Made by a program: the position numbers and the translations under genes. The notes beneath the pieces were generated by a model, which worked only from the letters and a program-made list of their open reading frames with translations, was not told the DNA's origin and did not search any database. DNA of 64,000 nucleotides, taken from Candidatus Rokuibacteriota bacterium (GTDB lineage: Bacteria; Methylomirabilota; Methylomirabilia; Rokubacteriales; CSP1-6). Where the stretch lies: NCBI GenBank assembly GCA_016184125.1, contig JACPDG010000051.1:7983-71982 (forward strand), read 5' to 3'. Shown one piece after another: positions 5,356 through 22,153 of the stretch; position 1 is the first letter of the stretch, and the number at the start of each line of letters is the position of its first letter.

Positions 5356-6618
5356 ATGAGCACGTCCCGGGTTTTCTTCGGCTGGTGGGTCGCGCTGTCC
5401 TTCTCGGCGATGGTGTTCCTCTCCACCGGCATCCGCTTCACCGTCGGACCGTTCCTCAAGCCGATGGTGGCCGACCTCGGTCTCGACCGCGCCAGCTTCT
5501 CGCTCGTCGTCTCCGTGGGCCTCTTCCTCTACGGCGCGGTCATGCCGGCCGTCGGACGCCTCGCCGATCAGCTCGGCGCGCGGCCGGTCGTCGTCGCGGG
5601 CGCCATCGTGCTCGCGGGCTCGGTGGCGGCGAACGCGCTGGTCCAGCACTACTGGCAGCTCTGGATCGTCTACGGCCTCGGCATGGCGCTCGGTCTCGCG
5701 ATGACGGGCCACGTCGTGGCGTCTGCGGTGATCACCCGGTGGTTCACGCGACGGCGCGCGACGGCGCTGTCGCTGCTCGGCGCCGCGTCGATGGCGGGCA
5801 TGAGCCTCCTCGTCCCCATCTCGATGTGGCTGATCATGCGGATCGGCTGGCGCCTGACCTACGTGGTCCTCGCGGCCGCGGCCCTCGTCGTGATCCTGCC
5901 GCTCGCGCTCTGGGTCATGCGCGACGCGCCCGAGTCGATGGGGCTCGCGCCCGACGGCGCGCCCGTGGCGACCACCCGGGCGCCGGCCGGCGACGAGCGC
6001 ATGACCGCCGCGGCCGCGATGCAGACCCGACCGTTCTGGCACATCGCGCTCGCGCTCTCGACCTGTGGGTTCTCGATGAGTCTGCTGTCGGCCCACGGCG
6101 TGCCGATGCTCACCGACCACGGCTACCACCCGATGGTCGCCTCGTGGGCCTTCGCCCTCCTGGGCGGCACGAACGTCGTGTTCGCCTTGATCCTCGGTAC
6201 GGTCGCCGACCGGATCGGCGCACGACCCGTGCTCGTCGGGATCTACGGCGGACGCGCGATCGCGGTCGCCCTCCTGTTCGTGATCCGCGACCAGCCGCTC
6301 GCGATCATGCTCGTCGCGGCGCTCGGCGGCGCGACCATGGCCGGCACGTTCGCCATGACATCGGCGCTCACGGCGGACATCTTCGGCCGGTTCTCCGTCG
6401 GCTCCGTCTTCGGCGCGATGTTCCTCGTCCACCAGGCGGGCGCAGCGCTCGGCTCGTGGCTCGGTGGTGTCTCGTTCGAGGGGACCGGCGGGTACGGGCT
6501 CGCCTTCGCCGTGGCGTCGATGACGCTGCTGTCCGCGTCGGTCCTGAGCCTCACGACGGACGTGCGCCCGCGGTGCGTCCCGGCGGCAAGCCTGTCCGCC
6601 GTCGCCGGCGGCCGGTGA
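5356..6618 (+). CDS. MFS transporter
   Basis: 12 hydrophobic segments; GRLADQLGAR and GTVADRIGAR MFS loop motifs. Confidence 0.9.
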   Translation: MSTSRVFFGWWVALSFSAMVFLSTGIRFTVGPFLKPMVADLGLDRASFSLVVSVGLFLYGAVMPAVGRLADQLGARPVVVAGAIVLAGSVAANALVQHYWQLWIVYGLGMALGLAMTGHVVASAVITRWFTRRRATALSLLGAASMAGMSLLVPISMWLIMRIGWRLTYVVLAAAALVVILPLALWVMRDAPESMGLAPDGAPVATTRAPAGDERMTAAAAMQTRPFWHIALALSTCGFSMSLLSAHGVPMLTDHGYHPMVASWAFALLGGTNVVFALILGTVADRIGARPVLVGIYGGRAIAVALLFVIRDQPLAIMLVAALGGATMAGTFAMTSALTADIFGRFSVGSVFGAMFLVHQAGAALGSWLGGVSFEGTGGYGLAFAVASMTLLSASVLSLTTDVRPRCVPAASLSAVAGGR

Positions 6619-6658: not shown

Positions 6659-7444
6659 ATGGGATACAGCACCGTCCTCGTCCAGCGCGTGGGCGCCGTC
6701 GCCACGATCACGCTCAACCGTCCCGAGGCGCGTAACGCGCTCGACCTCGTGATGCGGCGCGAGCTGCTGGACGTCCTCGACGACGTCGAGCGCGACGAGG
6801 GCGCGAGGGTCGTGGTCCTCACCGGCGCGGGCGGCCACTTCTGCGCGGGCGGCGACGTCAAGACGATGCGCGAGAAGCGGCACACCCCGGCCGAGGGCCG
6901 CGCGCGGGTCGAGCTGCTGAACCGGATGGTGGTGCGCCTCGTCGACTTCCCCCGCCCCACGATCGCGATGGTGGACGGCGTCGCCGTGGGCGCCGGCTGC
7001 AACCTCGCCCTCTGCTGCGACGTCGTCGTCGCGTCCGACCGCGCGCGCTTCGGCGAGGTGTTCGCCAGGATCGGACTCGTCCCCGACGGCGGCGGGACCT
7101 GGCTCGTGTCGCGCGCGGTCGGGCTCGCGCGCGCGAAGGAGCTCGTCTTCACCGCGGACATCATCGACGCGGCGGAGGCGCTGCGCATCGGCCTGGTGAC
7201 TCGCGTCGTGGCGGTCGCCGAGCTCGAGCAGCAGACACGTGCGCTCGCGGACCGCATCGCGGCCGGCCCGCCGGCCGCGCTGGCCATGGCCAAGCGCATG
7301 ATGAACCGCGCGGCGACGTCGGACCTCGAGAGCGCGCTCCAGATGGAGGCCTACGCGCAGGGCGTCGCGATCGCGTCCGAGGACCACCAGGAAGGGCTGG
7401 CGTCGTTCTTCGACAAGCGCGCCGCCCGGTTCACCGGCCGATGA
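6659..7444 (+). CDS. Enoyl-CoA hydratase/isomerase family protein
   Basis: LNRPEARNAL, FCAGGD, AVGAGCNLALCCD, GLVPDGG. Confidence 0.93.
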   Translation: MGYSTVLVQRVGAVATITLNRPEARNALDLVMRRELLDVLDDVERDEGARVVVLTGAGGHFCAGGDVKTMREKRHTPAEGRARVELLNRMVVRLVDFPRPTIAMVDGVAVGAGCNLALCCDVVVASDRARFGEVFARIGLVPDGGGTWLVSRAVGLARAKELVFTADIIDAAEALRIGLVTRVVAVAELEQQTRALADRIAAGPPAALAMAKRMMNRAATSDLESALQMEAYAQGVAIASEDHQEGLASFFDKRAARFTGR

Positions 7445-8523
7445 ACCGCATCGTCGGCACGGGGATCGCCGTGCCGCCGACCGTCGTGGACAACGGGCTC
7501 CTGTCGCGCTGCATGTCGACGACCGACGAGTGGATCGTCCAGCGCAGCGGTATCAGGCAGCGTCACGTGTCGCCGGACACCTGGCGGATGCTCCAGCGCC
7601 TGGCGGAGGCGCCGGACAAGCCGGCGTTCATGGACTCGGTGTTCGCCCAGGGGCTCGACGGCTGCATCGACTCGTCGATGACCGTGACGGACCTCGCGCT
7701 CGAAGCGAGCGCGATGGCGCTCAAGGCCGCGGGCATCCGCGCGCAGGAGCTCGACTGTATCGTCGAGTCCTCGACCCTGCCGGACCTGGCGTACCCGCAC
7801 ACGGGGTGCGTGCTGCAGGGACGGCTCGGGCTCACGAGCACGCCCGCGATCAGCCTCCAGCAGGGGTGCGCCGGCTTCGTCTACGGGCTGGCCATCGCCG
7901 ACCAGATGATGCGCGGCGGGATGTACCGCCAGGTCCTCGTGGTGGGTGCCGAGCTCCTGTCGAGCGCGTTCGATTACACCGACCGCGGCCGAGACATGGC
8001 GGTCCTGTTCGCCGACGGTGCGGGGGCGGCGGTCGTGCGGGCCGAGACCGGCAACCGCGGCGTGATCTCGAGTCACCTGCACTCCGACGGCACGATGATC
8101 GACGCGCTGTCCGGCGAGCTGTGTGGGTCCTCGACGTTCCCGCCGGTCTCGAAGAAGAAGATCGACGACGGCCGGGCGCGTCCGCGGATGAACGGCCGCC
8201 AGGTCTTCGTGCACGCCGTCCGGCGCTTCCGCGAGGTCATCCTCGAGTGCGTCGAGGCCAACGGCATCACGCTCGGCGACGTGGATCGCTTCGTCGTGCA
8301 CCAGGCGAATCTCAGGATCATCGAAGCGGTGGGCGACGCGCTCGGCATCCCGCCCGATCGCTTCTTCAACAACATCGAGCGCTTCGGCAACACCGCCGCC
8401 GCGTCGGTGCCCATCGCGTTGCACGAGGCGCTCGCGGCCGGCGCGATCCGCGACGGGGACCTCGTGATGCTCGCGTCGTTCGGCACCGGGCTGTCCTGGG
8501 GCGCGAACATGATCCGCTGGTAA
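7441..8523 (+). CDS. fabH: 3-oxoacyl-ACP synthase III
   Basis: Cys-His-Asn triad: GCAGF, HQANLRI, GNTAAAS; LFADGAGA; ATGA overlap with upstream gene. Confidence 0.9.
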   Translation: MNRIVGTGIAVPPTVVDNGLLSRCMSTTDEWIVQRSGIRQRHVSPDTWRMLQRLAEAPDKPAFMDSVFAQGLDGCIDSSMTVTDLALEASAMALKAAGIRAQELDCIVESSTLPDLAYPHTGCVLQGRLGLTSTPAISLQQGCAGFVYGLAIADQMMRGGMYRQVLVVGAELLSSAFDYTDRGRDMAVLFADGAGAAVVRAETGNRGVISSHLHSDGTMIDALSGELCGSSTFPPVSKKKIDDGRARPRMNGRQVFVHAVRRFREVILECVEANGITLGDVDRFVVHQANLRIIEAVGDALGIPPDRFFNNIERFGNTAAASVPIALHEALAAGAIRDGDLVMLASFGTGLSWGANMIRW

Positions 8524-8744: not shown

Positions 8745-10592
8745 GTGTCGCGCCACGTCGCGACCGCGCCCGCCATGTTTCTCGGCTCGGACAGGAGCCC
8801 CATGGGTGAGGAAGACCGGCAGCGTCTGACGCTCGTCCAGCGGTTCGGCCTGCTCAGCCTGCCGTGGGTGATCGGCCTGACGATCGCGCTCTGTGGCATC
8901 GCCGCCGCGCTGCTGACCGACCAGATCGTCCGGCATGAGGCGATCGACCTGGGCGAGATGCTGCAAGTCCTCATCCCCAGGGTTCTCGATCCCGAGGCGT
9001 TCGACAAGCCACCCGGAACGGCCCCCGGGATCGCCCGCGCGTTCGAGGAGCTGGCGCCCTCGAGGTCGATCGTGCGCGTGATCGTGTACGACCGGCGTGG
9101 CCGCGTCCTCTGGTCGGACGACAAGACGCTGATCGGCGGTGAGTACCCTGACAATCCGAAGCTGCAGGCCGCGCTGCGCGGTCGGCTGGACGCGTCGATC
9201 ATTCACCCCGGCACCAGCGCCGAACCCCACCACGCGGCGCTCAGGGGGTCCGATCGGCTCCTCGAGATGTACGTGCCCGTGCGATTCGGCCGCAACGCTC
9301 CGATCGTCGGCGCCGTCGAGCTCTACCGCGACGCGCCAGGGGTCCTCGTCCTGCTCGATCGCAGCGTGGGTATCCTGTGGGTGCTCGGCGGCCTTGCGGG
9401 TGCGGCGCTCTACGTCATCCTGGTCGTCATCGTCCGCCGGGCCTCGGCCCGGCAGCTCGCCCTGGAGGGGCAGCTCCGGGCGCACGCGCGGGACCTCGAG
9501 GAGCGAGTCGCGGAGCGAACCGCCGCACTGCGCGAGACCGGCGCCCGCTTGGAGAACGTCCTCGAGAGCTCCGCGGACGCGATCGTGACCCTCGACCAGC
9601 GGGGTGTCATCGCCTTCGCCAACCGCGCCGCGGTGCGGATCTTCGGTTACAGCCAGGACGCGCTCGTCGGGACGCGCCCGGCCACGTACTGGCTACACGG
9701 GCGCCGCGACTTCCGCGCACTGCGCCGCGCTCTGGTCAGGAACGAGCGCGTGGAGAACCACGAGACCGAGCTGCGGGCGGCCGACGGGCGCACCGTCATC
9801 GTCGACGTGTCAGCGTCGCTGCTGCGCTGCCCGCGGCGCGGCGTCACCGGTGCGGTGGGCGTGCTGCGCGATGTCACGGAGCTGCGCGCGCTGCACGAGC
9901 AGATGCTCCGGACCGAGCGACTGGCGACGGCCGGCCTCCTGGCGGCCGGGGTGGCCCACGAGGTGGGGAACCCGCTGATGTGCATCTCCTCGGTGGCGCA
10001 GGTTCTCAAGAAGCAGAGCACCGTGCCGGCCGTCCAGCGCGGCGTGGACGAGATCCAGCGCCACGTCCAGCGCATCGCCCGCATCGTGCGCGATGTGAGC
10101 CGCGTCGCACGGTCGTCGCGCCTCCAGCTCCGGACGGTCGCGGTCGAGGACGTGCTCCGGACAGCGGTCGACCTCGCACGGCACGTGCCCGGAGCGCGGG
10201 CGATCTCGATCGACGTCGAGTGCGAGACGGGGATGCCGCGTCTGCGCGGCGATCCCGACCGCCTCGCCCAGGTCTTCCTCAATCTGATCCTGAACGCCGT
10301 GGACGCGGGTGCCAACCTGACCGTGCGCGCCACCGCGCGCGATGGCGATGTGCGGGTGGTCTTCACGGACAAGGGACCGGGGATCGGGCCGGAGACTCTG
10401 GCGCGGGTCTTCGACCCGTTCTTCTCGACCAAGGCCGATGGCCACGCGGGCCTCGGTCTCTTCGTGAGTCGAGAGACGATCCGCGAGCATGGCGGGCTCC
10501 TGCTGGTGGAGAGCCGTCCAGGGCACGGCTCGACGTTCACGGTGCAGCTGCCGGTCGATCGGATCACGGAAAAGGCAGAGTGGCGGGAATGA
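8745..10592 (+). CDS. Membrane PAS-domain sensor histidine kinase (NtrB-like)
   Basis: Two TM segments, PAS (DAIVTLD...NRAA), H-box AHEVGNPL, N-box QVFLNLILNA, G-boxes DKGPGI and GLGL. Confidence 0.92.
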   Translation: MSRHVATAPAMFLGSDRSPMGEEDRQRLTLVQRFGLLSLPWVIGLTIALCGIAAALLTDQIVRHEAIDLGEMLQVLIPRVLDPEAFDKPPGTAPGIARAFEELAPSRSIVRVIVYDRRGRVLWSDDKTLIGGEYPDNPKLQAALRGRLDASIIHPGTSAEPHHAALRGSDRLLEMYVPVRFGRNAPIVGAVELYRDAPGVLVLLDRSVGILWVLGGLAGAALYVILVVIVRRASARQLALEGQLRAHARDLEERVAERTAALRETGARLENVLESSADAIVTLDQRGVIAFANRAAVRIFGYSQDALVGTRPATYWLHGRRDFRALRRALVRNERVENHETELRAADGRTVIVDVSASLLRCPRRGVTGAVGVLRDVTELRALHEQMLRTERLATAGLLAAGVAHEVGNPLMCISSVAQVLKKQSTVPAVQRGVDEIQRHVQRIARIVRDVSRVARSSRLQLRTVAVEDVLRTAVDLARHVPGARAISIDVECETGMPRLRGDPDRLAQVFLNLILNAVDAGANLTVRATARDGDVRVVFTDKGPGIGPETLARVFDPFFSTKADGHAGLGLFVSRETIREHGGLLLVESRPGHGSTFTVQLPVDRITEKAEWRE

Positions 10593-11896
10593 AGCCGTCG
10601 ATCTTGGTGGTGGACGATGAGTCGACGCTCCAGGAGACCCTCCGGTGGACCTTCGAGCACAACGGCTGGCGCGTGGTCGTGTCGGGCACGGGCGAGGAGG
10701 CGATCAGGTGCCTCAAGACCGATCGCTTCGACATCGTCGTCACCGACATCCGCCTGCCCGGTATCGACGGTATCGAGGTGCTCCGCTGCGCTCGCTCGCT
10801 CGTGGCGCGGCCACCGGTCGTGCTGATCACCGCGTACGGGACCGTCGAGACGGCGGTGGCCGCGCTTCGCCACGGGGCCGCCGACTACATCCTGAAGCCG
10901 TTCGATCTCGATGACCTGAAGGCGCGCGTGGAGCGCCTGGTCGACGACACAACCGCGACGAGGCGGCGCTGGGCCGACCCGCTCGGCGAGATCGTGGGTC
11001 AGACCCCGGGGATCCAGGCCTTGCGACAGCAGGTGCAGAAGGCCGCGATGACGAGCAGCAACGTGCTGATCACGGGTGAGACCGGCGCCGGGAAGGACCT
11101 GGTCGCGCGGAGCATCCATGCTGTGAGTGTCAGGCACGCCCATCGGTTCGTCGCGGTGAACTGCGGCGCTGTCCCGGACACGCTGTTCGAGAGCCAGCTC
11201 TTCGGCCACGCGCGCGGGGCCTTCACCGGTGCCGTCCAGGCCAACCCCGGGCTCATGGTGGCCGCCGACAAGGGCACGCTCTTCCTCGACGAGGTCGGCG
11301 AGCTGCCGTTGCTGCTGCAGGTCAAGCTCCTGCGCGCGCTCGAGGCCAAGGAAGTGTGGCCGGTCGGGCAGACACGCGCCGTGCCGACCGACTGCCGCAT
11401 CATCGCGAGCACGAACCGTGACGTCGAGGCCGAGGTCGCGGCGGGCCGCCTGCGTGCGGACCTCTTCTACCGCCTGAAGGTCGTGCACATCACCGTTCCG
11501 CCGCTGCGCGAGCGGCGGGCCGACATCCCACTCCTGGCCAAGCACCTCCTGTACCAGATCAACGGGCGGCTCGGCACCTGCGTGGCCGGTGTCGAACCCG
11601 ACGCGATGCACGCCCTGATGAACCACGACTGGAAAGGCAACGTCCGCGAGCTGCAGCACGCGCTCGAAAGCGCCATCGTCAACGGCGCCGACGAGCGCAT
11701 CACGCTCGAGGCCCTTCCGCGCGACGTGAACCCGATGGCGGCCCAGATACCGCTCAAGGAAGCGACGCGCCAGTTCGAGCGAGCGCGGGTGCTCGAGGCG
11801 CTCGCACAGACGGGCTTCGACAAGCGGGAGGCGGCCCGCCTGCTCGGGCTCAGCATGGCCTCGCTCTACCGCAAGCTGGACGATCGTTCGGAGTAG
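10589..11896 (+). CDS. Sigma-54-dependent response regulator (REC-AAA+-Fis HTH)
   Basis: ILVVDDE, TDIRLPG, Walker A GETGAGKD, GAFTGA, WKGNVREL, SLYRKL. Confidence 0.95.
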   Translation: MKPSILVVDDESTLQETLRWTFEHNGWRVVVSGTGEEAIRCLKTDRFDIVVTDIRLPGIDGIEVLRCARSLVARPPVVLITAYGTVETAVAALRHGAADYILKPFDLDDLKARVERLVDDTTATRRRWADPLGEIVGQTPGIQALRQQVQKAAMTSSNVLITGETGAGKDLVARSIHAVSVRHAHRFVAVNCGAVPDTLFESQLFGHARGAFTGAVQANPGLMVAADKGTLFLDEVGELPLLLQVKLLRALEAKEVWPVGQTRAVPTDCRIIASTNRDVEAEVAAGRLRADLFYRLKVVHITVPPLRERRADIPLLAKHLLYQINGRLGTCVAGVEPDAMHALMNHDWKGNVRELQHALESAIVNGADERITLEALPRDVNPMAAQIPLKEATRQFERARVLEALAQTGFDKREAARLLGLSMASLYRKLDDRSE

Positions 11897-11901
11897 CCGC
11901 T

Positions 11902-11945
11902 TCTCGAAAACGACAGACGCCGGAGCCCGATTCTCAGCGCTGACA
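11902..11945. promoter_or_regulatory. Paired enhancer-like (UAS) palindromes, set 1
   Basis: TCTCG-AAAA-CGACA (11902) and TCTCA-GCGC-TGACA (11932), 30 bp apart, 70-110 bp upstream of a -24/-12 motif. Confidence 0.6.
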
Positions 11946-12012
11946 CGCCACTGCCGCCCGCCTTCCGCCGCCTGCATCATCTTCCGCCCACACCGAACCT
12001 ACGTCGGCGGCA

Positions 12013-12028
12013 TGGCACGCCGTCTGCT
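12013..12028 (+). promoter_or_regulatory. Sigma-54 -24/-12 promoter P1
   Basis: TGGCACGCCGTCTGCT, near-consensus with GG and GC 12 bp apart. Confidence 0.75.
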
Positions 12029-12046
12029 GGGCCGACCCACCCGTCG

Positions 12047-12238
12047 ATGAGCGCAGAGCCGCAGCTGGTGGTCATCGAGATCCTCGAAGGCAAGCGGACG
12101 CTGAAGGAAGCGATCCGTAGCTTCGAGCGTGAGTGCGTCCTCGCCGCGCTCGAGCGCGCGAACTTCGACAAGCGACGGGCCGCGAGCCTGCTCGGTATCA
12201 GCCTCGCCTCGCTCTACCGCAAGCTGGAACGCTCGTAG
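12047..12238 (+). CDS. Stand-alone Fis-type HTH mini-protein (63 aa), paralogous to the C-terminus of the upstream activator
   Basis: 29/42 identical residues to the regulator HTH region; same ASLYRKL recognition helix. Confidence 0.8.
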   Translation: MSAEPQLVVIEILEGKRTLKEAIRSFERECVLAALERANFDKRRAASLLGISLASLYRKLERS

Positions 12239-12338
12239 CGTCCACGATCTGCGCTCGGTGACGCCGGTACGCACCGGCTTCCACCCCCGACGCGGGCAGG
12301 GGGGTGGCAGCGCGCCTCTCAAAAGCTGGCGTCACGGT

Positions 12339-12384
12339 TCTCAAGGCTGAGAGCGACCGCCCGCGGCTCATCTCAACTCTGCGA
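12339..12384. promoter_or_regulatory. Paired enhancer-like (UAS) palindromes, set 2
   Basis: TCTCA-AGGC-TGAGA (12339, perfect) and TCTCA-ACTC-TGCGA (12371), 32 bp apart; extra TCTCA half-site at 12317. Confidence 0.6.
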
Positions 12385-12462
12385 ACGGAGCACCCGCCGC
12401 TATAGGTCAATGTACCTGTTTTTCTGGCGATTTAATGATGCGTATGCGTCATCGTGCGGCCG

Positions 12463-12478
12463 CGGCATTCCCGGTGCA
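12463..12478 (+). promoter_or_regulatory. Candidate sigma-54 promoter P2 for the oxidase operon
   Basis: CGGCATTCCCGGTGCA with correct GG/GC spacing; AT-rich tract 12401-12440 lies between it and UAS set 2. Confidence 0.5.
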
Positions 12479-12621
12479 CTACGCCGCACCGCGTATTCGT
12501 CGCTTCGCCGACGAGCTCGCATCTCTGCGCAGGTCCACGAGGAGTGCCTCACGCGAAGGAGGGACTGATGCGGAGCGGACCGGTCCACGCGCAACCGACA
12601 CGACGCAAGGAGAGACGCACG

Positions 12622-15600
12622 ATGACGCCGCACCGCACACGAGCCCGCATTCCCGCACTCACGACCCGCCGCCGTGCGATCGGCCTGCTCGGCCCGATCG
12701 TGCTCGTCGCCGTGTTGCTCGCGGCGGTCCTTCCCGGTCCCGCCCATGGGCATGGGGCCTGCGCCACCACGGTGGTGGCCGACGTGGTCGCCTTCGACAC
12801 GCCGATGATGTTCAACCGCCTGGGCGCGCAGAACCCGAACTGGATCACGTACGCGCTGAAGCGCGACGTGGTCGCCCTCACGGGCGGCGCCGCGGGGCCC
12901 GGTAACGCCCAGATGCGCAAGGACAAGCGGATTCGCCCGCTCGTCCTGCGCGTCAACGAGGGCGATTGCCTGAAGGTCAACTTCACCAACTGGCTCGCCG
13001 GCGCAGCGAACCCGTTCGTCAACGCCGACCGCGAGCCGCCGATGAACCTCGAGTCGCCGTTCCTGAAGATCGACGACCAGGTGCGTGGCCGCTACGCCGG
13101 CTTCCACGTGCGCGGTCTGCAGCTCGCCGGCACCATCGCGTCCGACGCCTCCAACGTCGGCAGGAACGCCAGCAGCCTGGTCCCGTCCGGCGGCGGCGCG
13201 ACGTACACCTACTTCGCTCCACCAGGGACGCGTGGCGCCTACCTTGCGGACAGCTACGGCGCGACGTTCGGCGGAGAAGCCACGGCCGGCAACACGGGCC
13301 AGGGCATGTTCGCCGTCGTCAACGTGGAGCCGAAGGGCGCCCGCTGGTACCGCAGCCAGGTGACCGATGAGGAGCTGCGGCTGGCCACGACGGGCACGAC
13401 GGCGGCCGGCCAGCCGATTCTCAGTTATGAGGCGCGCTATCCGGCGACGAACCCCGACGGGTCGCCGAGCATCTGGTTCGCCGAGGGCAAGGCAAACCTG
13501 CCGATCCTCAACATGAGGGACGGCAACGCCATCGTCCACTCGGACATCAACGCGATCATCGCTGGCCCGAATCCCGACGGTACCTTCCCGGCGAGCACCT
13601 ACCCGCTGGAGAGCGCCGGCAAGCGCAATCCGGCCGTGCCCAACCGGCTGGAGCCGTTCCGCGAGTTCACCACCGTCTTCCACGATGAGCCGTCCGTGGG
13701 GCAGGCGTTCCCGGGCTTCTACGACGCCAACCCGGTCACCAGGCGCCTCCTCCACGGCGTCCGCGACGGGTTCATGATCAACTACGGCTCGGGCGGCATC
13801 GGCTCGGAAATCATCGCCAACCGCCTGGGCGTGGGGCCGATGTGGGACTGCCTCTCCTGCGCCTACGAGGAGTTCTTCCTCGGCTCCTCGGAGGTTGGCG
13901 ACCCGGCGATGCTGGTCGACATTCCTGCGAACGTCGGCCTCGAAGCCTGCGACGTCGCGGGCGCGAACTGCCTCGACGTCGGGCCGAAGGCGACCAAGGC
14001 GCTCTTCCCGGACGACCCGTCGAACGTCCATCACAGCTACCAGAACGACCGGGTCGTGTTCCGGAACCTGCACGCGGGGAAGGAGCACCACATCTTCCAC
14101 CTCCACAACCACCAGTGGCTCTTCGACGCCAACGACGACAACTCGAACTATCTGGACGCCCAGGCGATCGGCCCAGGCTCCGGGTACACGTACGAGATCA
14201 ACTTCGGCGGCAGCGGCAACCGCAACAAGACTGCCGGCGACGCGATCTTCCACTGCCACTTCTATCCCCACTTCGCCCAGGGCATGTGGGAGCTGTGGCG
14301 GATCCACGACGTGTACGAGACCGGCACGCAGCTGGACGTGAGCGGTGGTGGCTTCCACACCGTGCCCTTCGCCCTGTTCGACGGCACGCCGGCCGTGTCG
14401 TCCAGCGTGCCTGGGGCCCGGATGAGGGCACTGCCCGACGGTGAGATCCTGGCCGGCACGCCGATCCCGGCTCTGGTCCCGCTCCCCGGCAAGGCGCTGC
14501 CGCTGATGCCGGGCGAGGTCGTGGTCGTCCAGAAGAACGCCAATCCCGGCGTGGACGAGGTCCCCGACGACCCGGTGGCATGCGCCGCGGATCCGAACGG
14601 GCCGACCTGCGGCGTCCAGGCGCTGCCGGATTCGAGCCAAGCCCACGTGGTCGACCGCGCGCAGAACCCCGGCTACCCGTTCTGGATCGCCGGTGTCGAT
14701 TGTGGCGGCGACCCCGTGAACTGCCCGCTCGGGGTCGTGGGCCAGCGGCCCCCGACGCCGGTCCTCGACATGCTGAGCGAGGGTCAGGCCGCCGGGCTCC
14801 GCGCCGGCAACGGCACGCTGTTCGGCGCGCTCAACAACCTGGGCGGCCCGGCCGACGGCGGCTGGGACGGCGGGCTGCCGCGCCACGCGCTCGACGGCTT
14901 CCTGGCCGCCGGTGGCCGGACGCCGGACGTGTTCCACCAGGAGCAGACCAAGCTCAGCTTCGACAAGGAGATCTTCAAGGCCAAGCCGGTCTGGTTCCCC
15001 GAGGGCGGCACCGATGTCGAGCAGGCTGCGATGGCGTTCCATGCCGTCCGTGCCTACCCGAGCACCGCGGTGCGGCTTGACGGCACTACCACCACGGCCG
15101 ACTACATCACCAACGGCGGACCGCCCCAGGCGGGCGCGCCCATGTCCGAGCCGTGCATCGACGACAGGGGCGTCACGCTCTTCACCGGTGTCACGGGGCA
15201 GTGGTTCGGCTCGACGCCGGGGAGCCTGGTGAGCCTCGGCACCTCGCCGTTCAGCGCGACCGCGCCGCGCGTCTACAAGGGCGCCAACATCCAGATCGAC
15301 GCGGTCTTCAACAAGGTCGGCACCCACTACCCCCAGCAGCGGATCATCTCGCTCTGGGAGGACGCGCTGCCGTTCATCGACAAGCAGAAACCGCCGGAAC
15401 CCTTCGTCATCCGCAACAACACGCTCGACTGCACGCGGTACCTGCACACGAACCTGGTGCCCAAGCGCTTCGAGGTGGACGACTACCAGGTGACGACGCC
15501 GACGGACGTGATCGGCCAGCACATCCACCTGCCCAAGTGGGACCTGCCGGCGGCGGACGGCTCGGGCAACGGCTGGAACTACGAGGACGGGACGCTGTCG

Positions 15601-18589: not shown

Positions 18590-20545
18590 GTGCGCCACCA
18601 CGCAGTCACCCGTGCGGCTCGCTGGGCAGTCCTGACCTTTCTCCTCGCCTTTCCGGCCTTCGCTCGGGCGCCCGAGGGGCGCGCGGCCGCGCCCGAGGGA
18701 GCCACGTCCCCGAATCGGCTGGCGCGGGAAGGCGTGACCGTCGAGTTCTCCGCGAAGCCGGCCGGCGGCGATGGAGACCTCCGGGAAGGCGATTACGCCG
18801 ACGTCTCCTTCCGCATCACCGACACCTCGACGGGCCGCCCGGTGCGGTCGCTCGCTCCGGGCGCGTGGATGGACATCGGGCAGCCGGTCGCGGCACGCGA
18901 CAAGGCGCCGCTCGACTGCCGGCAGAAGATGGGCCTCTACCTCTCTGGTCGGGTCGGTATCAGGCCCATGATCGACCTCAACAGCTACTACGTCCTCGCG
19001 CTCAACCGGGACTCGAGCATCTCGGTGGTGGATCCGCACGTCGGGATGGCGGGGAAGACGTACCTCTACGCCCACATCGCCCTGCCGAAGCCCGGCGCCG
19101 ACTGGGCGAAGACAACGGACGACAAGCGCCTGTTCGTCACGACTCCCCGGGGCGGACAGGTCGTGGTGGTCGACGCCGAGAGCTTCAAGGTCGCCGGCAA
19201 GGTGGACGTGGGCGGCCTGCCCGTACGGATCGTGATGCAGCGCGACGGCCGCTATCTCTGGGTGGGAGACGACAGCGCCGAGGCGGCGCGGAGCGGGGTG
19301 GTCGTCATCGATGGGGCGGCGCTGAGCGTCGCCGGCCGCATCCCCACGGGTCGCGGCCACCACGAGATCACACTCTCGCCGGACGACCGGTGGGCCTTCG
19401 TCAGCAATCGCGAAGAGGGCACGGTCTCGGTGATCGACGTCCAGCGTCTGGCGAAGGTCAAGGACGTGAAGACCGGCCTTCAGCCCATCTCGCTCGCGTA
19501 CTCGCGGCTGAGCCAGGCCCTGTACGTCGCCGACGGCGAGACGGGCGAGATCGCAGTGATCGACGGCCAGCGCCAGGAGGTGGTGGCCCGCATCGCGGCG
19601 AAGCCGGGCCTCGGGCCCATGCGCTTCACCGAGGACGGGCGCTGGGGGTTCGTCGTGAACACCCGGCACGACACGGTTCACGTCCTGGACATCTCGAACA
19701 ACCGCCTGGCGCACACGGTCCCCGTCGGGAAGCGTCCCTTCCAGCTCGCCGTCACCGGGGCGTTCGCCTACGTGCGCTCGCTCGATTCCGAAAAGGTGAG
19801 CATGATCCCGCTCTCGGAGCTCGGCCGTGACCAGATGCCGCGCGTCACGGACTTCGGCGCCGGCACGGAGACGCCGGGCGCGGCCGGGCCGGGCATCGCC
19901 GTGGCCGCGCCGATGGTCCCCGCGCTCGGCGAGGCGGCGGTGATGGTGGGGAACCCGGCGGACGGGAACATCTACTTCTACATGGAGGGGATGGTGGCAC
20001 CGATGGCCACCTTCCGGAGCTACGGCCACCGGCCCGCCGCGCTCGAGGTCGTCAACCGGAGCCTGAAGGAAACGGAGCCTGGCGTGTACCGGACCACGGT
20101 GCGGCTTCCCGCCGCGGGCACGTACGATGTCGGCTTCGTTCTGAACTCGCCTCAGCTGGTCCACTGCTTCGCAGCGGACGTCAAGGTGAACCCCGCGTTG
20201 GCCCGCACGGGGCCGTCGCTCGAGATCGCCTACCTCGTCAAGGACCGGCGCGTTCCGGTCGGTCAGCCGGTCACCGTCGGCTTCAAGCTGATCGACCCGG
20301 ACACGCAGCAACCGCGGACGGGGCTCGGCGACGTCGGCGTCTACTACGTGAGCTCGATGCGCCACCGGGCGCAGGCGCCGGTGCGCGAGCGGGGCGACGG
20401 CGTCTACGAGGCGACGATCTCGGTGCCTGAAGCGGGGGCGTATTACGTGTACGTGGCGGTCCCCTCGGCGAAGATCCAGCTCGGCGACCTCACGCACCTG
20501 AGCTTGATCGCCGAGCGGACGCCGGGCGCGACCCGACGCCGGTGA
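18590..20545 (+). CDS. Exported YVTN/YncE beta-propeller protein with C-terminal YtkA/FixH-like domain
   Basis: Signal peptide; repeated blades AFVSNREEGTVSVID, LYVADGETGEIAVID, GFVVNTRHDTVHVLD. Confidence 0.8.
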   Translation: MRHHAVTRAARWAVLTFLLAFPAFARAPEGRAAAPEGATSPNRLAREGVTVEFSAKPAGGDGDLREGDYADVSFRITDTSTGRPVRSLAPGAWMDIGQPVAARDKAPLDCRQKMGLYLSGRVGIRPMIDLNSYYVLALNRDSSISVVDPHVGMAGKTYLYAHIALPKPGADWAKTTDDKRLFVTTPRGGQVVVVDAESFKVAGKVDVGGLPVRIVMQRDGRYLWVGDDSAEAARSGVVVIDGAALSVAGRIPTGRGHHEITLSPDDRWAFVSNREEGTVSVIDVQRLAKVKDVKTGLQPISLAYSRLSQALYVADGETGEIAVIDGQRQEVVARIAAKPGLGPMRFTEDGRWGFVVNTRHDTVHVLDISNNRLAHTVPVGKRPFQLAVTGAFAYVRSLDSEKVSMIPLSELGRDQMPRVTDFGAGTETPGAAGPGIAVAAPMVPALGEAAVMVGNPADGNIYFYMEGMVAPMATFRSYGHRPAALEVVNRSLKETEPGVYRTTVRLPAAGTYDVGFVLNSPQLVHCFAADVKVNPALARTGPSLEIAYLVKDRRVPVGQPVTVGFKLIDPDTQQPRTGLGDVGVYYVSSMRHRAQAPVRERGDGVYEATISVPEAGAYYVYVAVPSAKIQLGDLTHLSLIAERTPGATRRR

Positions 20546-20563
20546 AGTGAGAAACGGCCTCGC

Positions 20564-22153
20564 ATGGCCCTCACGTCCTGGCGACGTACCCGCTGCGCCG
20601 TGCTCGTCGGCGCTGCCGTGCTTCTCGTCCCCGCCGTGATCGCGGCCGCCGGCCTTTCGGAGGCCGAGCGGCGGGGCAAGCGCATCTACATCGAGGGGCG
20701 GGGCCGCGGCCCGATCTCGGCGTACCTCGTCGGTCCGCGGCTGTCGGCGCCGGGCTCGGCGTTCCCATGCGCGAACTGTCATCTCGGAGAAGGTCCCGGG
20801 GTCAAGGAGGGCGGTGTCCAGGCCGCGGACATCAGGCATGCGACGCTCACGAAGGCGTTCGAGGGCGTCCGCCCGTCGGGGCGCGCGCATCCGCCGTACG
20901 CCGATGGGGACCTCGAGCGTGCCGTGGCGTTCGGCGCCGACCCCGGCGGCAACGCGCTCCACGAGGCCCATCCCCGCTATGCGATGAGCCCCGACGACCT
21001 GGCGGACCTCGTCGCCTACCTGAAGATCGTGGGGCGCGAGCCCGTGCCGGGTGTGACGGAGCGCGAGGTCCGCGTCGGCGTGCTCCTTCCGGACCGCGGG
21101 CCGCTCGCCGAGGCGGGGAACGCGGTGACGCGCTTGCTCCGGGGCTACTTCGACGAGGTGAACGCGCGGGGCGGGCTCTTCAGGCGAGCGCTCACGCTCG
21201 TGCCCGTCCTGTTCGATCCGGCCCGCGAGGACTCGGTGACTGCCGCCGTGAGAGAGGTGGTGGAGGAGGAGAACCTCTTCTGCCTGCTCGCCAATGTCGG
21301 CGTGCCGCCGGACCACGAGAGCTTGAAGGCGCTGTCGGCGGCACAGGTTCCCGTCATCGCGCCCTTGCAGGTCGCGCTGGACGGCGGCTACGGCGCGGAC
21401 CGCTACACGTTCCACGTCTGGGCGAGCATTCGCGATCAGGCGCGGGTGATGGTGGATTTCCTCACGCAGGCCGCCAGCAGGGCCCCGGCGCGGCTTGCGG
21501 TGCTCCACGTGTCGGACGCGTCCGGCGAGGCGGCCGCAGCCGGAGCGCGGGAGCAGCTCGCCAAGCACGGGCGTTCGGTCGTGGCCGAGGTGGCCTTTGC
21601 GCCGGGGAGGCTTTCTGCGCCCGAGATCGTGAGCCGGCTCCGGGACGCCTCCGCCGAGGCGGTCCTCTTCTTCGGGAGCGGTACCGACGTCCTCGCGTTT
21701 CTCGATGAGACGGAGCGCCAGCAGTGGCGCCCGCTCGTCCTCGCTCCCGCACCGATGGTCGGACGCTCGCTCCTCTCCCTGCCTGCCGGCGTGGCCAGGT
21801 CCGTGTACCTCGCGTCTCCGATCGCGAGTCCCGATCCCGCGGCGCGGGAGACGGCGGAGTTCCTGCGCCTCGCTGCCCGGTCGGCGGGTTCCGGAGACCA
21901 CCGGTCGTTCCAGATGCTCGCCTTCGCTGGAGCGAAGCTCCTGGAGGAAGGCCTGAGGCGATCGGGTCGAGACGTCAGCCGCCAGCGGGTCGTCGACGCG
22001 CTCGGGAGTCTCTGGAGATTTCCGACCGGCGTCACGCCGCCACTGACCTACAGCGGGAACCGTCGTGTGGGTGCGCTGGGATCCCAGATCCTCGCGATCG
22101 ACGCCGAACAGGGCCGGCTGACCGTGGCCGCCCCGTGGCGTGAGCCGCGATGA
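20564..22153 (+). CDS. Cytochrome c fused to a Leu/Ile/Val-type periplasmic binding-protein domain
   Basis: CANCH heme motif; PGVTEREVRVG start of Peripla_BP_6-like domain. Confidence 0.8.
   Translation: MALTSWRRTRCAVLVGAAVLLVPAVIAAAGLSEAERRGKRIYIEGRGRGPISAYLVGPRLSAPGSAFPCANCHLGEGPGVKEGGVQAADIRHATLTKAFEGVRPSGRAHPPYADGDLERAVAFGADPGGNALHEAHPRYAMSPDDLADLVAYLKIVGREPVPGVTEREVRVGVLLPDRGPLAEAGNAVTRLLRGYFDEVNARGGLFRRALTLVPVLFDPAREDSVTAAVREVVEEENLFCLLANVGVPPDHESLKALSAAQVPVIAPLQVALDGGYGADRYTFHVWASIRDQARVMVDFLTQAASRAPARLAVLHVSDASGEAAAAGAREQLAKHGRSVVAEVAFAPGRLSAPEIVSRLRDASAEAVLFFGSGTDVLAFLDETERQQWRPLVLAPAPMVGRSLLSLPAGVARSVYLASPIASPDPAARETAEFLRLAARSAGSGDHRSFQMLAFAGAKLLEEGLRRSGRDVSRQRVVDALGSLWRFPTGVTPPLTYSGNRRVGALGSQILAIDAEQGRLTVAAPWREPR

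Follow-up and report, generated by a model that had tools for sequence, protein, structure and literature searches.

The gene for a giant multicopper oxidase of the MnxG type in a Candidatus Rokuibacteriota genome is preceded by genes for a sensor histidine kinase and an NtrC-type sigma-54 activator and, between activator and oxidase, by a 63-codon open reading frame that encodes a stand-alone helix-turn-helix (HTH) protein related to the DNA-binding domain (DBD) of the activator. The locus raises the question of what such a protein does beside a full-length relative: whether it restrains the activator by competing for its DNA sites, assists it as an architectural factor, regulates targets of its own, or is a relic. 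An earlier note on this DNA had proposed the first of these roles, or else that of a Fis-like DNA bender, and described the gene as a possible built-in anti-activator. The usual restraint on a sigma-54 activator is a partner protein that acts on its ATPase or its sensory domain, and the trans-acting negative regulators of such activators include PspA, NifL, FleN, and HrpV, whose respective targets are PspF, NifA, FleQ, and HrpS. To our knowledge, the known brakes contact the AAA+ or the regulatory domain and do not compete for enhancers, and none is a paralog of the DBD of its activator. The gene and its product are referred to below as the mini-gene and mini-protein, and the window is the whole stretch of 64,000 nucleotides that was analyzed.

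Results

Organization of the locus

The features of the locus are collected in Table 1. The kinase gene runs 4 nt into the activator gene, and the activator, which has an intact GAFTGA motif and a C terminus ending ...DKREAARLLGLSMASLYRKL, has its closest relatives (57-60% identity) also beside multicopper oxidases; its nearest named relatives are from Methylomirabilota/Rokuibacteriota (about 55% identity). The closest homologs (57-58% identity), in L173 (5067-9123), L174 (678-6554), and L176 (1055-4896), are encoded next to smaller multicopper oxidases and SCO1/SenC, and their loci contain the same paired palindromes and sigma-54 promoters as the window. Together, the window activator and these homologs look like a subfamily of activators dedicated to oxidases.

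Table 1. Positions of genes and putative regulatory elements at the mnxG locus of the window
Feature	Position	Strand	Basis or remark
PAS sensor histidine kinase, presumed activator partner	8745..10592	+	Pfam PAS, HisKA, HATPase_c
NtrC-type sigma-54 activator, MnxR-like	10589..11896	+	Pfam Response_reg, Sigma54_activat, AAA_lid_14, HTH_8
Distal enhancer-like site, mini promoter, TTCTCGAAAACGACAG	11901..11916	.	2 mismatches; 30 bp from next site
Proximal enhancer-like site, mini promoter, TTCTCAGCGCTGACAC	11931..11946	.	Centre 76 bp upstream of -24 GG
Mini-gene sigma-54 promoter, TGGCACgccgtCTGCT	12013..12028	+	TGGCAC-N5-CTGC; score 22/23, top in window
Mini-gene, 63-aa stand-alone HTH_8 (NtrC-DBD/Fis-type) protein	12047..12238	+	ATG start; ORF list, Pfam
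Distal enhancer-like site, mnxG, TTCTCAAGGCTGAGAG	12338..12353	.	1 mismatch
Proximal enhancer-like site, mnxG, ATCTCAACTCTGCGAA	12370..12385	.	2 mismatches; 32 bp from 12338 site; centre 87 bp upstream of candidate mnxG -24 element
Candidate mnxG sigma-54 promoter, cGGCATtcccgGTGCA	12463..12478	+	Score 19/23; weak alone
Giant MnxG-type multicopper oxidase, 1948 aa	12622..18468	+	NCBIfam NF041487

The length given for the oxidase assumes a start at the ATG in front of a Tat-like signal peptide. The protein matches NF041487 from end to end (1-1894 of 1894) with 2250 bits, which is below the curated cut-off of 3100, and is 51-58% identical to proteins of Pseudomonas, Anaeromyxobacter, and Archangium and 54-57% identical to those of L004 and L009, its nearest counterparts being from Myxococcota (56-58%). 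The surroundings of mnxG (window positions 6659-8523 and 18590-22153) are syntenic with L004-L006, with genes for an enoyl-CoA hydratase and a FabH-like ketosynthase upstream and, downstream, genes for a 651-residue beta-propeller protein with Cytochrom_D1/YtkA/FixH-like matches and a Peripla_BP_6 protein; L004 contains two additional SCO1/SenC genes.

Structure of the mini-protein

The open reading frame list, Pfam, and BLASTP agree with the earlier description of a 63-residue protein that contains the ASLYRKL helix and has neither an AAA+ nor a receiver domain. The sole Pfam match above cut-off is HTH_8 (PF02954; residues 23-62, 47 bits against a cut-off of 22), an annotation carried by all members of the mini family; with this domain only, the protein does not itself belong to the enhancer-binding proteins, whose AAA+ domain and GAFTGA motif are present in its neighbor. 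BLASTP aligns residues 19-61 of the mini-protein, ASLYRKL included, with residues 388-430 of the adjacent activator at 29/43 identities (67%, E = 3e-15), in good agreement with the 29/42 counted previously.

The AF2 model of the mini-protein (pLDDT 92) contains four helices, at residues 5-13, 19-37, 42-49, and 53-62, and no strand. The predicted fold is a four-helix NtrC-DBD/Fis-like one in which a long helix is followed by a helix-turn-helix that can be superposed on the NtrC DBD and on Fis; the top Foldseek matches are 3E7L, 4L5E, 4FTH, and Fis (probability about 1.0, TM about 0.7), and the best PDB sequence matches are the DBDs of NtrC4 and NtrC1. The Fis chains among the Foldseek matches are 16-22% identical to the mini-protein, and features of Fis proper were not found: the model has no beta-hairpin arms and the NCBIfam matches include no Fis model.

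The predicted transcription start near position 12039 gives the window mini-gene a leader of only ~8 nt, with no Shine-Dalgarno sequence before the ATG, so that the efficiency of its translation is uncertain; the orthologs in L004 and L009 have clear GGGAGG sites and long leaders. In L089 (917-922), the predicted sigma-54 start leaves a leader of ~3 nt before the first ATG, also with no Shine-Dalgarno sequence. The start codon of the L089 mini-gene is itself uncertain (annotations of 111-131 residues versus a possible start at MLDGRC), and its long N-terminal extension differs from that of P0003 by an in-frame repeat of 7 residues (an extra LGSRLDS, at 1020-1060).

Conservation and selection

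Few relatives emerged when 5.8 billion proteins were searched through a word index, and a subsequent profile search delimits a mini family of six clusters (P0001-P0005 and P0154) at 122-132 bits; the next match has at most 86 bits, and matches at this level are mostly C-terminal fragments of activators with an AAA_lid domain. The clusters represent four metagenomic lineages: the window, which is identical to L001-L003; L004-L008 together with L169, with a mini-protein of 83 residues; L009, with one of 73 residues; and L089/P0003/P0154. The family is small and its lineages are probably Methylomirabilota-like. Wherever the contig is long enough, the order activator, mini-gene, and giant MnxG-type oxidase is retained in all four lineages, and because the flanking proteins of different lineages are only 54-58% identical, this arrangement must be old.

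Between L004 and L169, the dN/dS of the mini-gene is 0.42 overall but 0.145 in the 45-codon HTH core, whereas the N-terminal part has a value of 1.3 and the C-terminal tail one of 0.85. In the 43-codon core, differences at third positions are ~2-4 times as frequent as those at first or second positions in every pair of lineages, and the GC3 of the mini-gene (0.87) is close to that of the activator gene (0.92). The 150-bp spacer after the activator contains no coding remnants of an AAA+ domain, and no RNA element was found by Rfam (E <= 1) in 11800-12700. The mini-gene is real, under selection, and syntenic. The assay of conservation and dN/dS that the earlier note had proposed has accordingly been carried out, and the outcome in which the gene is an unconserved, decaying duplication is contradicted by its presence in four lineages, the selection on its HTH core, and its coding-type codon-position bias.

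The mini-gene is not a general companion of mnxG, since none of 79 mnxG loci retrieved from GTDB (from Pseudomonas, Anaeromyxobacter, Archangium, Hyphomonas, and others) has an activator or a mini-gene within 10 kb. Nor is it a general companion of the activator subfamily: of 63 related activators for which 450 bp or more of the sequence downstream is available, one is followed by a mini-gene (L089, of the same mini family), and the closest activator orthologs, those beside smaller oxidases, have none. Small HTH matches in L094, L111, and L158 proved to be frameshifted activator genes.

Relationship to the activators

In the 43-residue core, mini-proteins are 67-88% identical to each other and 65-70% identical to the activators encoded next to them, and in a sample of 57 other activators, chosen for sharing the LGISLASLY motif, between three and nine are at least as close to the mini-proteins as are their own neighbors. 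In neighbor-joining trees, the mini-proteins form one clade in 64 of 100 bootstraps and are paired with their neighbors in none, which rules out a recent local duplication or gene conversion from the neighboring gene. From these comparisons, the mini-protein is an old paralog of the DBD of the activator subfamily as opposed to a recent copy of its neighbor. The earlier view of it as a copy of the DBD of the adjacent activator is thus upheld with respect to homology and to its being a stand-alone HTH_8 protein but not with respect to recent copying.

The segment that precedes the core (VVIEILEGKR in the window and VVARLLDGRT in L009) can by eye be matched to the terminal part of the AAA+ lid in the activators (ITLEALPRD), and this similarity would fit a mini-gene that began as the 3' piece of an activator gene. 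Mini-proteins and activators have in common the HTH DKRxAAxxLGISLASLYRKL, and the mini-protein matches the activators of the subfamily completely or almost completely over helix C and the recognition helix; the differences cluster in the long dimerization helix (CVLAAL/FVLAAL versus RVLEAL/HILDVL). It should be recognized that the recognition helix SLASLYRKL is common to hundreds of activators, and its identity is therefore no proof that the targets are identical.

Sigma-54 promoters

The near-consensus sigma-54 promoter previously assigned to the mini-gene is confirmed by its score of 22 out of 23 points (next best in the window, 20) and by its retention in all four lineages. It is the sole match to TGGCAC-N6-TGC in 64 kb, but as at least one such match occurs in 43 of 100 shuffled sequences, a single match is within chance; it is taken beyond chance by where it lies, ~20 nt upstream of the ATG, and by its retention in every lineage. 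The corresponding promoters are TGGCACgctccCTGCT in both L004 (9898) and L169 (361), TGGCACgggtcATGCG in L009 (274), and TGGCACactccCTGCC in L089 (891). Between L004 and L169 the promoter is invariant, although the spacer between activator and mini-gene is 75% identical, and the other conserved islands in this spacer are the TTCTCGAATGTGACAG site, a TTCTCG-N4-YGAGAC palindrome, and the GGAGG-ATG start. The mini-gene has the sequence attributes of a sigma-54-dependent gene, with correctly spaced -24 GG and -12 GC elements and a pair of palindromes ~75-110 bp upstream. This combination of a conserved promoter and enhancer-like sites indicates that it is very probably induced by the neighboring activator.

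The score of the candidate mnxG promoter is shared by 27 sites on the two strands of the window. Its variant sequence (CGGCAT-N5-GTGC) and its geometry are the same as those of the oxidase promoter in L173, a locus with no mini-gene; it is located 144 nt before the mnxG ATG at 12622, and in L009 TGGCACctcccGTGCA occupies the equivalent place before mnxG. The interval from the mini-gene to mnxG in the window yielded neither a sigma-70 promoter nor a terminator on the + strand, and because no such terminator was found, read-through from the mini promoter into mnxG is possible.

Paired palindromes

The palindromes previously described as TCTCA-N4-TGAGA were recovered and are better written as TTCTC-N6-GAGAA, with half-sites spaced by 11 bp. 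A scan that allowed up to 2 mismatches located four sites around the mini-gene, within 11901-12385, against ~0.2 expected from their density in the whole window; perfect copies are absent from the 64-kb window and from its shuffles. The sites occur in pairs 30-32 bp apart, with the center of the proximal site 71-87 bp upstream of the -24 GG, and the pair at 11901 and 11931 has the same geometry as those in L089, L173, and L176. Other sites are present in L004 (9797, 9955, 10240, and 10393), L089 (767 and 798), and L009 (579), and L169 has five within 1,082 bp, three of them perfect. The distal mnxG site of the window has counterparts downstream of the mini-gene in L004 (10393, perfect), L169 (1000, perfect), and L009 (579, 2 mismatches).

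The loci with no mini-gene are informative about the protein that recognizes these sites. In L173, a pair at 6416 and 6446 is followed by cGGCATgcctcGTGCT (6525) and then by the oxidase gene, and in L176 a pair at 2535 and 2567 is followed by TGGCACagcccCTGCT (2644); in both, the sole protein with an HTH of the mini type is the activator (SLASLYRKL or SVASLYRKL). Because the pairs precede sigma-54 promoters where there is no mini-gene, TTCTC-N6-GAGAA is most likely the enhancer of the activator subfamily, and the window appears to contain two putative parallel modules, each consisting of an enhancer pair and a sigma-54 promoter, one for the mini-gene and the other for mnxG. Across the loci, palindromes are found in enhancer positions, in the 5'-UTR of the mini-gene (L004 9955), or over its stop codon (L004 10240 and L169 700), and the scan found none between an enhancer and its promoter. 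The sites of the mini promoter have a variant right half (GACAC or GACAG) in the window, in L004/L169, and, by eye, in L009.

The palindrome in the 5'-UTR (L004 9955-9970 and L169 417-432, about +30 to +47) has retained its half-sites while its spacer has changed (GGTCCT versus GAACCC), and its position would be suited to autoregulation. The one that overlaps the stop codon (L004 10240-10255 and L169 700-715) could account for the conservation of the final residues, RARSHR, in an otherwise unconserved tail.

Departures in the L004 lineage

The activator of L004 (8865-9809), like those of L005-L007, has no receiver domain, and RASTSA is present in place of GAFTGA, with Walker A and B motifs that look intact; no histidine kinase gene precedes the activator gene in this lineage. 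The replacement of GAFTGA suggests that this activator is probably unable to engage and activate sigma-54, yet the L004 mini-gene retains its sigma-54 promoter. No sigma-54 promoter was found before mnxG in L004 or L169. At 10393-10450 in L004 and 1000-1050 in L169, the perfect palindrome TTCTCATTTTCGAGAA abuts a conserved GGATTGACA, which contains TTGACA, before mnxG, and transcription of mnxG in these loci may start from a sigma-70-type promoter with the palindrome as an operator or activator site.

Discussion

The reading that we tentatively favor, as one that may well be wrong, is that the mini-protein is a homodimeric, DBD-only competitor for the enhancers of the activator that induces it, forming a negative feedback loop. 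The phosphorylated activator would bind to the paired TTCTC-N6-GAGAA enhancers and fire two parallel sigma-54 promoters, those of the mini-gene and mnxG. The mini-protein, which keeps the HTH of the activator without its AAA+ and receiver domains, would then occupy the same palindromes and make it harder for the activator to oligomerize at the enhancer, and the resulting feedback would limit or shorten expression of the oxidase. Synteny in four lineages, selection on the core, the conserved promoters, the shared HTH, and the DBD fold are consistent with such a role, and the mini-protein probably binds to the enhancer sites of the activator itself. Against it stands the fact that close relatives of this activator-oxidase locus manage without a mini-gene. 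Also, because the neighboring activator of the L004 lineage is probably incompetent with sigma-54, a simple loop in which an activator induces its own competitor cannot hold there unchanged.

A more specific form of competition is possible but doubtful. In this scheme the low-affinity variant enhancers would drive induction of the mini-gene, and the mini-protein would then displace the activator from the high-affinity sites and so itself be an enhancer decoy; it is speculation that the variant right half (GACAG or GACAC) could give the brake a threshold of its own.

The same co-regulation would also suit a positive role, exerted by binding cooperatively or by bending DNA. The mini-protein could be an architectural or co-activating factor whose dimer bends DNA or binds cooperatively at the same or neighboring sites, in the part played by IHF or Fis at other sigma-54 promoters, leading to feed-forward amplification of mnxG expression. 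The predicted fold matches Fis over all four helices, mnxG promoters of Pseudomonas are reported to depend on IHF and sigma-54 (PMC11930936), and co-induction with mnxG would suit a helper as well as a brake. However, a looping factor would be expected to bind between enhancer and promoter, and the observation that the sites are at enhancer positions, with none in between, is the reason for preferring a competitor to a looping bender; in addition, the arms that Fis carries at its N terminus are missing and the sister loci that have the same enhancer-promoter geometry and no mini-gene evidently need no such factor. Such a role is therefore considered unlikely.

The comparison with Fis is nevertheless relevant to the origin of the mini-protein. 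According to a passage in PMC7166090, Fis has been proposed to derive from the DNA-binding domain of NtrC (Morett and Bork 1998). Fis and the mini-protein are both stand-alone, four-helix Fis-type HTH proteins and would have arisen from an activator DBD by the same evolutionary route, but Fis is a global nucleoid protein of ~98 residues with beta-hairpin arms, whereas the mini-protein has 63 residues and no arms, is specific to one locus and to defined palindromes, is driven by sigma-54, and is restricted to four metagenomic lineages. The NinH protein of phage lambda, a Fis-like HTH homodimer of 68 residues that binds and bends DNA (PMC7166090), is a second very small stand-alone protein of this type and illustrates that a protein of this size can dimerize and bind DNA; it differs in being phage-encoded, in the C-terminal location of its dimerization region, and in having no link with a sigma-54 activator. 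The NtrC-family DBDs (Aquifex NtrC4 and NtrC1, PDB 3E7L, 4FTH, and 4L5E; S. typhimurium NtrC, 1NTC) have the same three-helix HTH_8 core, and a construct of 63 residues of the NtrC4 DBD has been crystallized alone and with double-stranded DNA, as the PDB titles state. In contrast to these domains, the mini-protein is the product of a separate gene with its own promoter, is not part of an AAA+ protein, and has an extra N-terminal helix derived from the end of the activator AAA+ lid (VIEILEGKR versus ITLEALPRD).

Less likely again is that the mini-protein is an independent small Fis-type repressor or activator with a specificity of its own, for instance for the GACAG/GACAC half-site or for sigma-70 promoters, and is merely linked to the locus. 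The variant right half before the mini promoter in the window, in L004/L169, and by eye in L009 can be read in this way, as can the conjunction, in L004/L169, of TTGACA abutting a perfect palindrome before mnxG with the loss of GAFTGA and with no sigma-54 promoter found there; stand-alone HTH_8 genes with no adjacent activator also exist elsewhere. The HTH residues, however, are the same as those of activators that use the canonical palindrome, and the strict synteny with both activator and mnxG points to a function within this one circuit.

The long helix of Fis-type proteins mediates dimerization in Fis and in NtrC DBDs, and the mini-protein might in principle pair with the DBD of the activator and poison it, leaving too few AAA+ subunits for an active ring. 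This helix is present in both proteins with the same hydrophobic register, and both would share sites at the same time. However, the positions that distinguish mini-proteins from activators (C/F30, A33, and A34 versus R/H, E/D, and A/V) are located in the same helix, and their clustering there suggests a diverged, self-specific interface; also, the mini-proteins form a clade of their own and do not co-vary with their neighbors. Poisoning by heterodimers is, on balance, improbable, and more so than an independent regulator.

The reading of the mini-gene as a non-functional leftover of a partial duplication, or as an open reading frame that arose by chance, is close to refuted, since, in spite of the very short leader and missing Shine-Dalgarno sequence of the window copy, the nearly neutral evolution of both tails, and the many overlapping spurious frames in DNA of 70% GC, the frame is intact in four lineages whose flanking proteins have diverged to 54-58% identity, the core is under selection with coding-type codon-position bias and GC3, promoter and Shine-Dalgarno sequences are conserved, and the spacer is free of AAA+ remnants.

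In their position, several known brakes resemble the competitor that is favored here. MphX is encoded in the cluster that it regulates and partly represses MphR-dependent activation (PMC3063778). Like PspA, NifL, FleN, and HrpV, it is a brake encoded at the locus, as is proposed for the mini-protein, and none of the five has any sequence kinship to the mini-protein. If the decoy form of the competitor reading is correct, the mini-protein would be, as far as we know, the first anti-activator of an enhancer-binding protein to work by competition for DNA and not by contact with the AAA+ or sensory domain. A co-induced DBD-only paralog acting on the same enhancer would be a different and very simple design for feedback, which could easily be transplanted into synthetic sigma-54 circuits, and the mini-protein would in addition be a modern illustration of the proposed route from NtrC to Fis, a stage between an activator domain and a stand-alone Fis-type protein.

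The regulation of Mn oxidation in Pseudomonas putida GB-1, which requires MnxS1/S2 and the sigma-54-dependent MnxR and in which IHF and sigma-54 promoter elements have been predicted for mnxG (PMC11409713, PMC11930936), is similar to that indicated for the window in that an MnxG-type giant oxidase is controlled by a kinase together with a response regulator that depends on sigma-54. The regulators of P. putida GB-1 are encoded elsewhere, whereas those in the window adjoin mnxG. The architecture of paired TTCTC-N6-GAGAA sites and promoters defined here for an activator subfamily dedicated to multicopper oxidases in uncultivated soil bacteria bears on the control of manganese and copper oxidases outside Pseudomonas.

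The literature search found no description of a sigma-54-driven, activator-adjacent paralog that consists of a DBD only, which agrees with the earlier statement that no example of the arrangement was known; stand-alone Fis-type HTH proteins are in themselves known and common. A library of 1.8 billion proteins contains many HTH_8-only proteins of ~80 residues, some of them encoded on long contigs with no neighboring activator. HTH_8-only frames of 64-104 codons with the LGISLASLYRKL helix and no adjacent activator are present in contigs from similar soil metagenomes, in L108 (1216-1410), L170 (5001-5249), L171 (2044-2358), and L172 (1023-1217). HTH_8 also occurs in tandem (P0007, P0012, P0013, P0016, and others), with two matched stretches in proteins of ~120 residues, three in many proteins of ~255 residues, and as many as 13 in one of 1006 residues.
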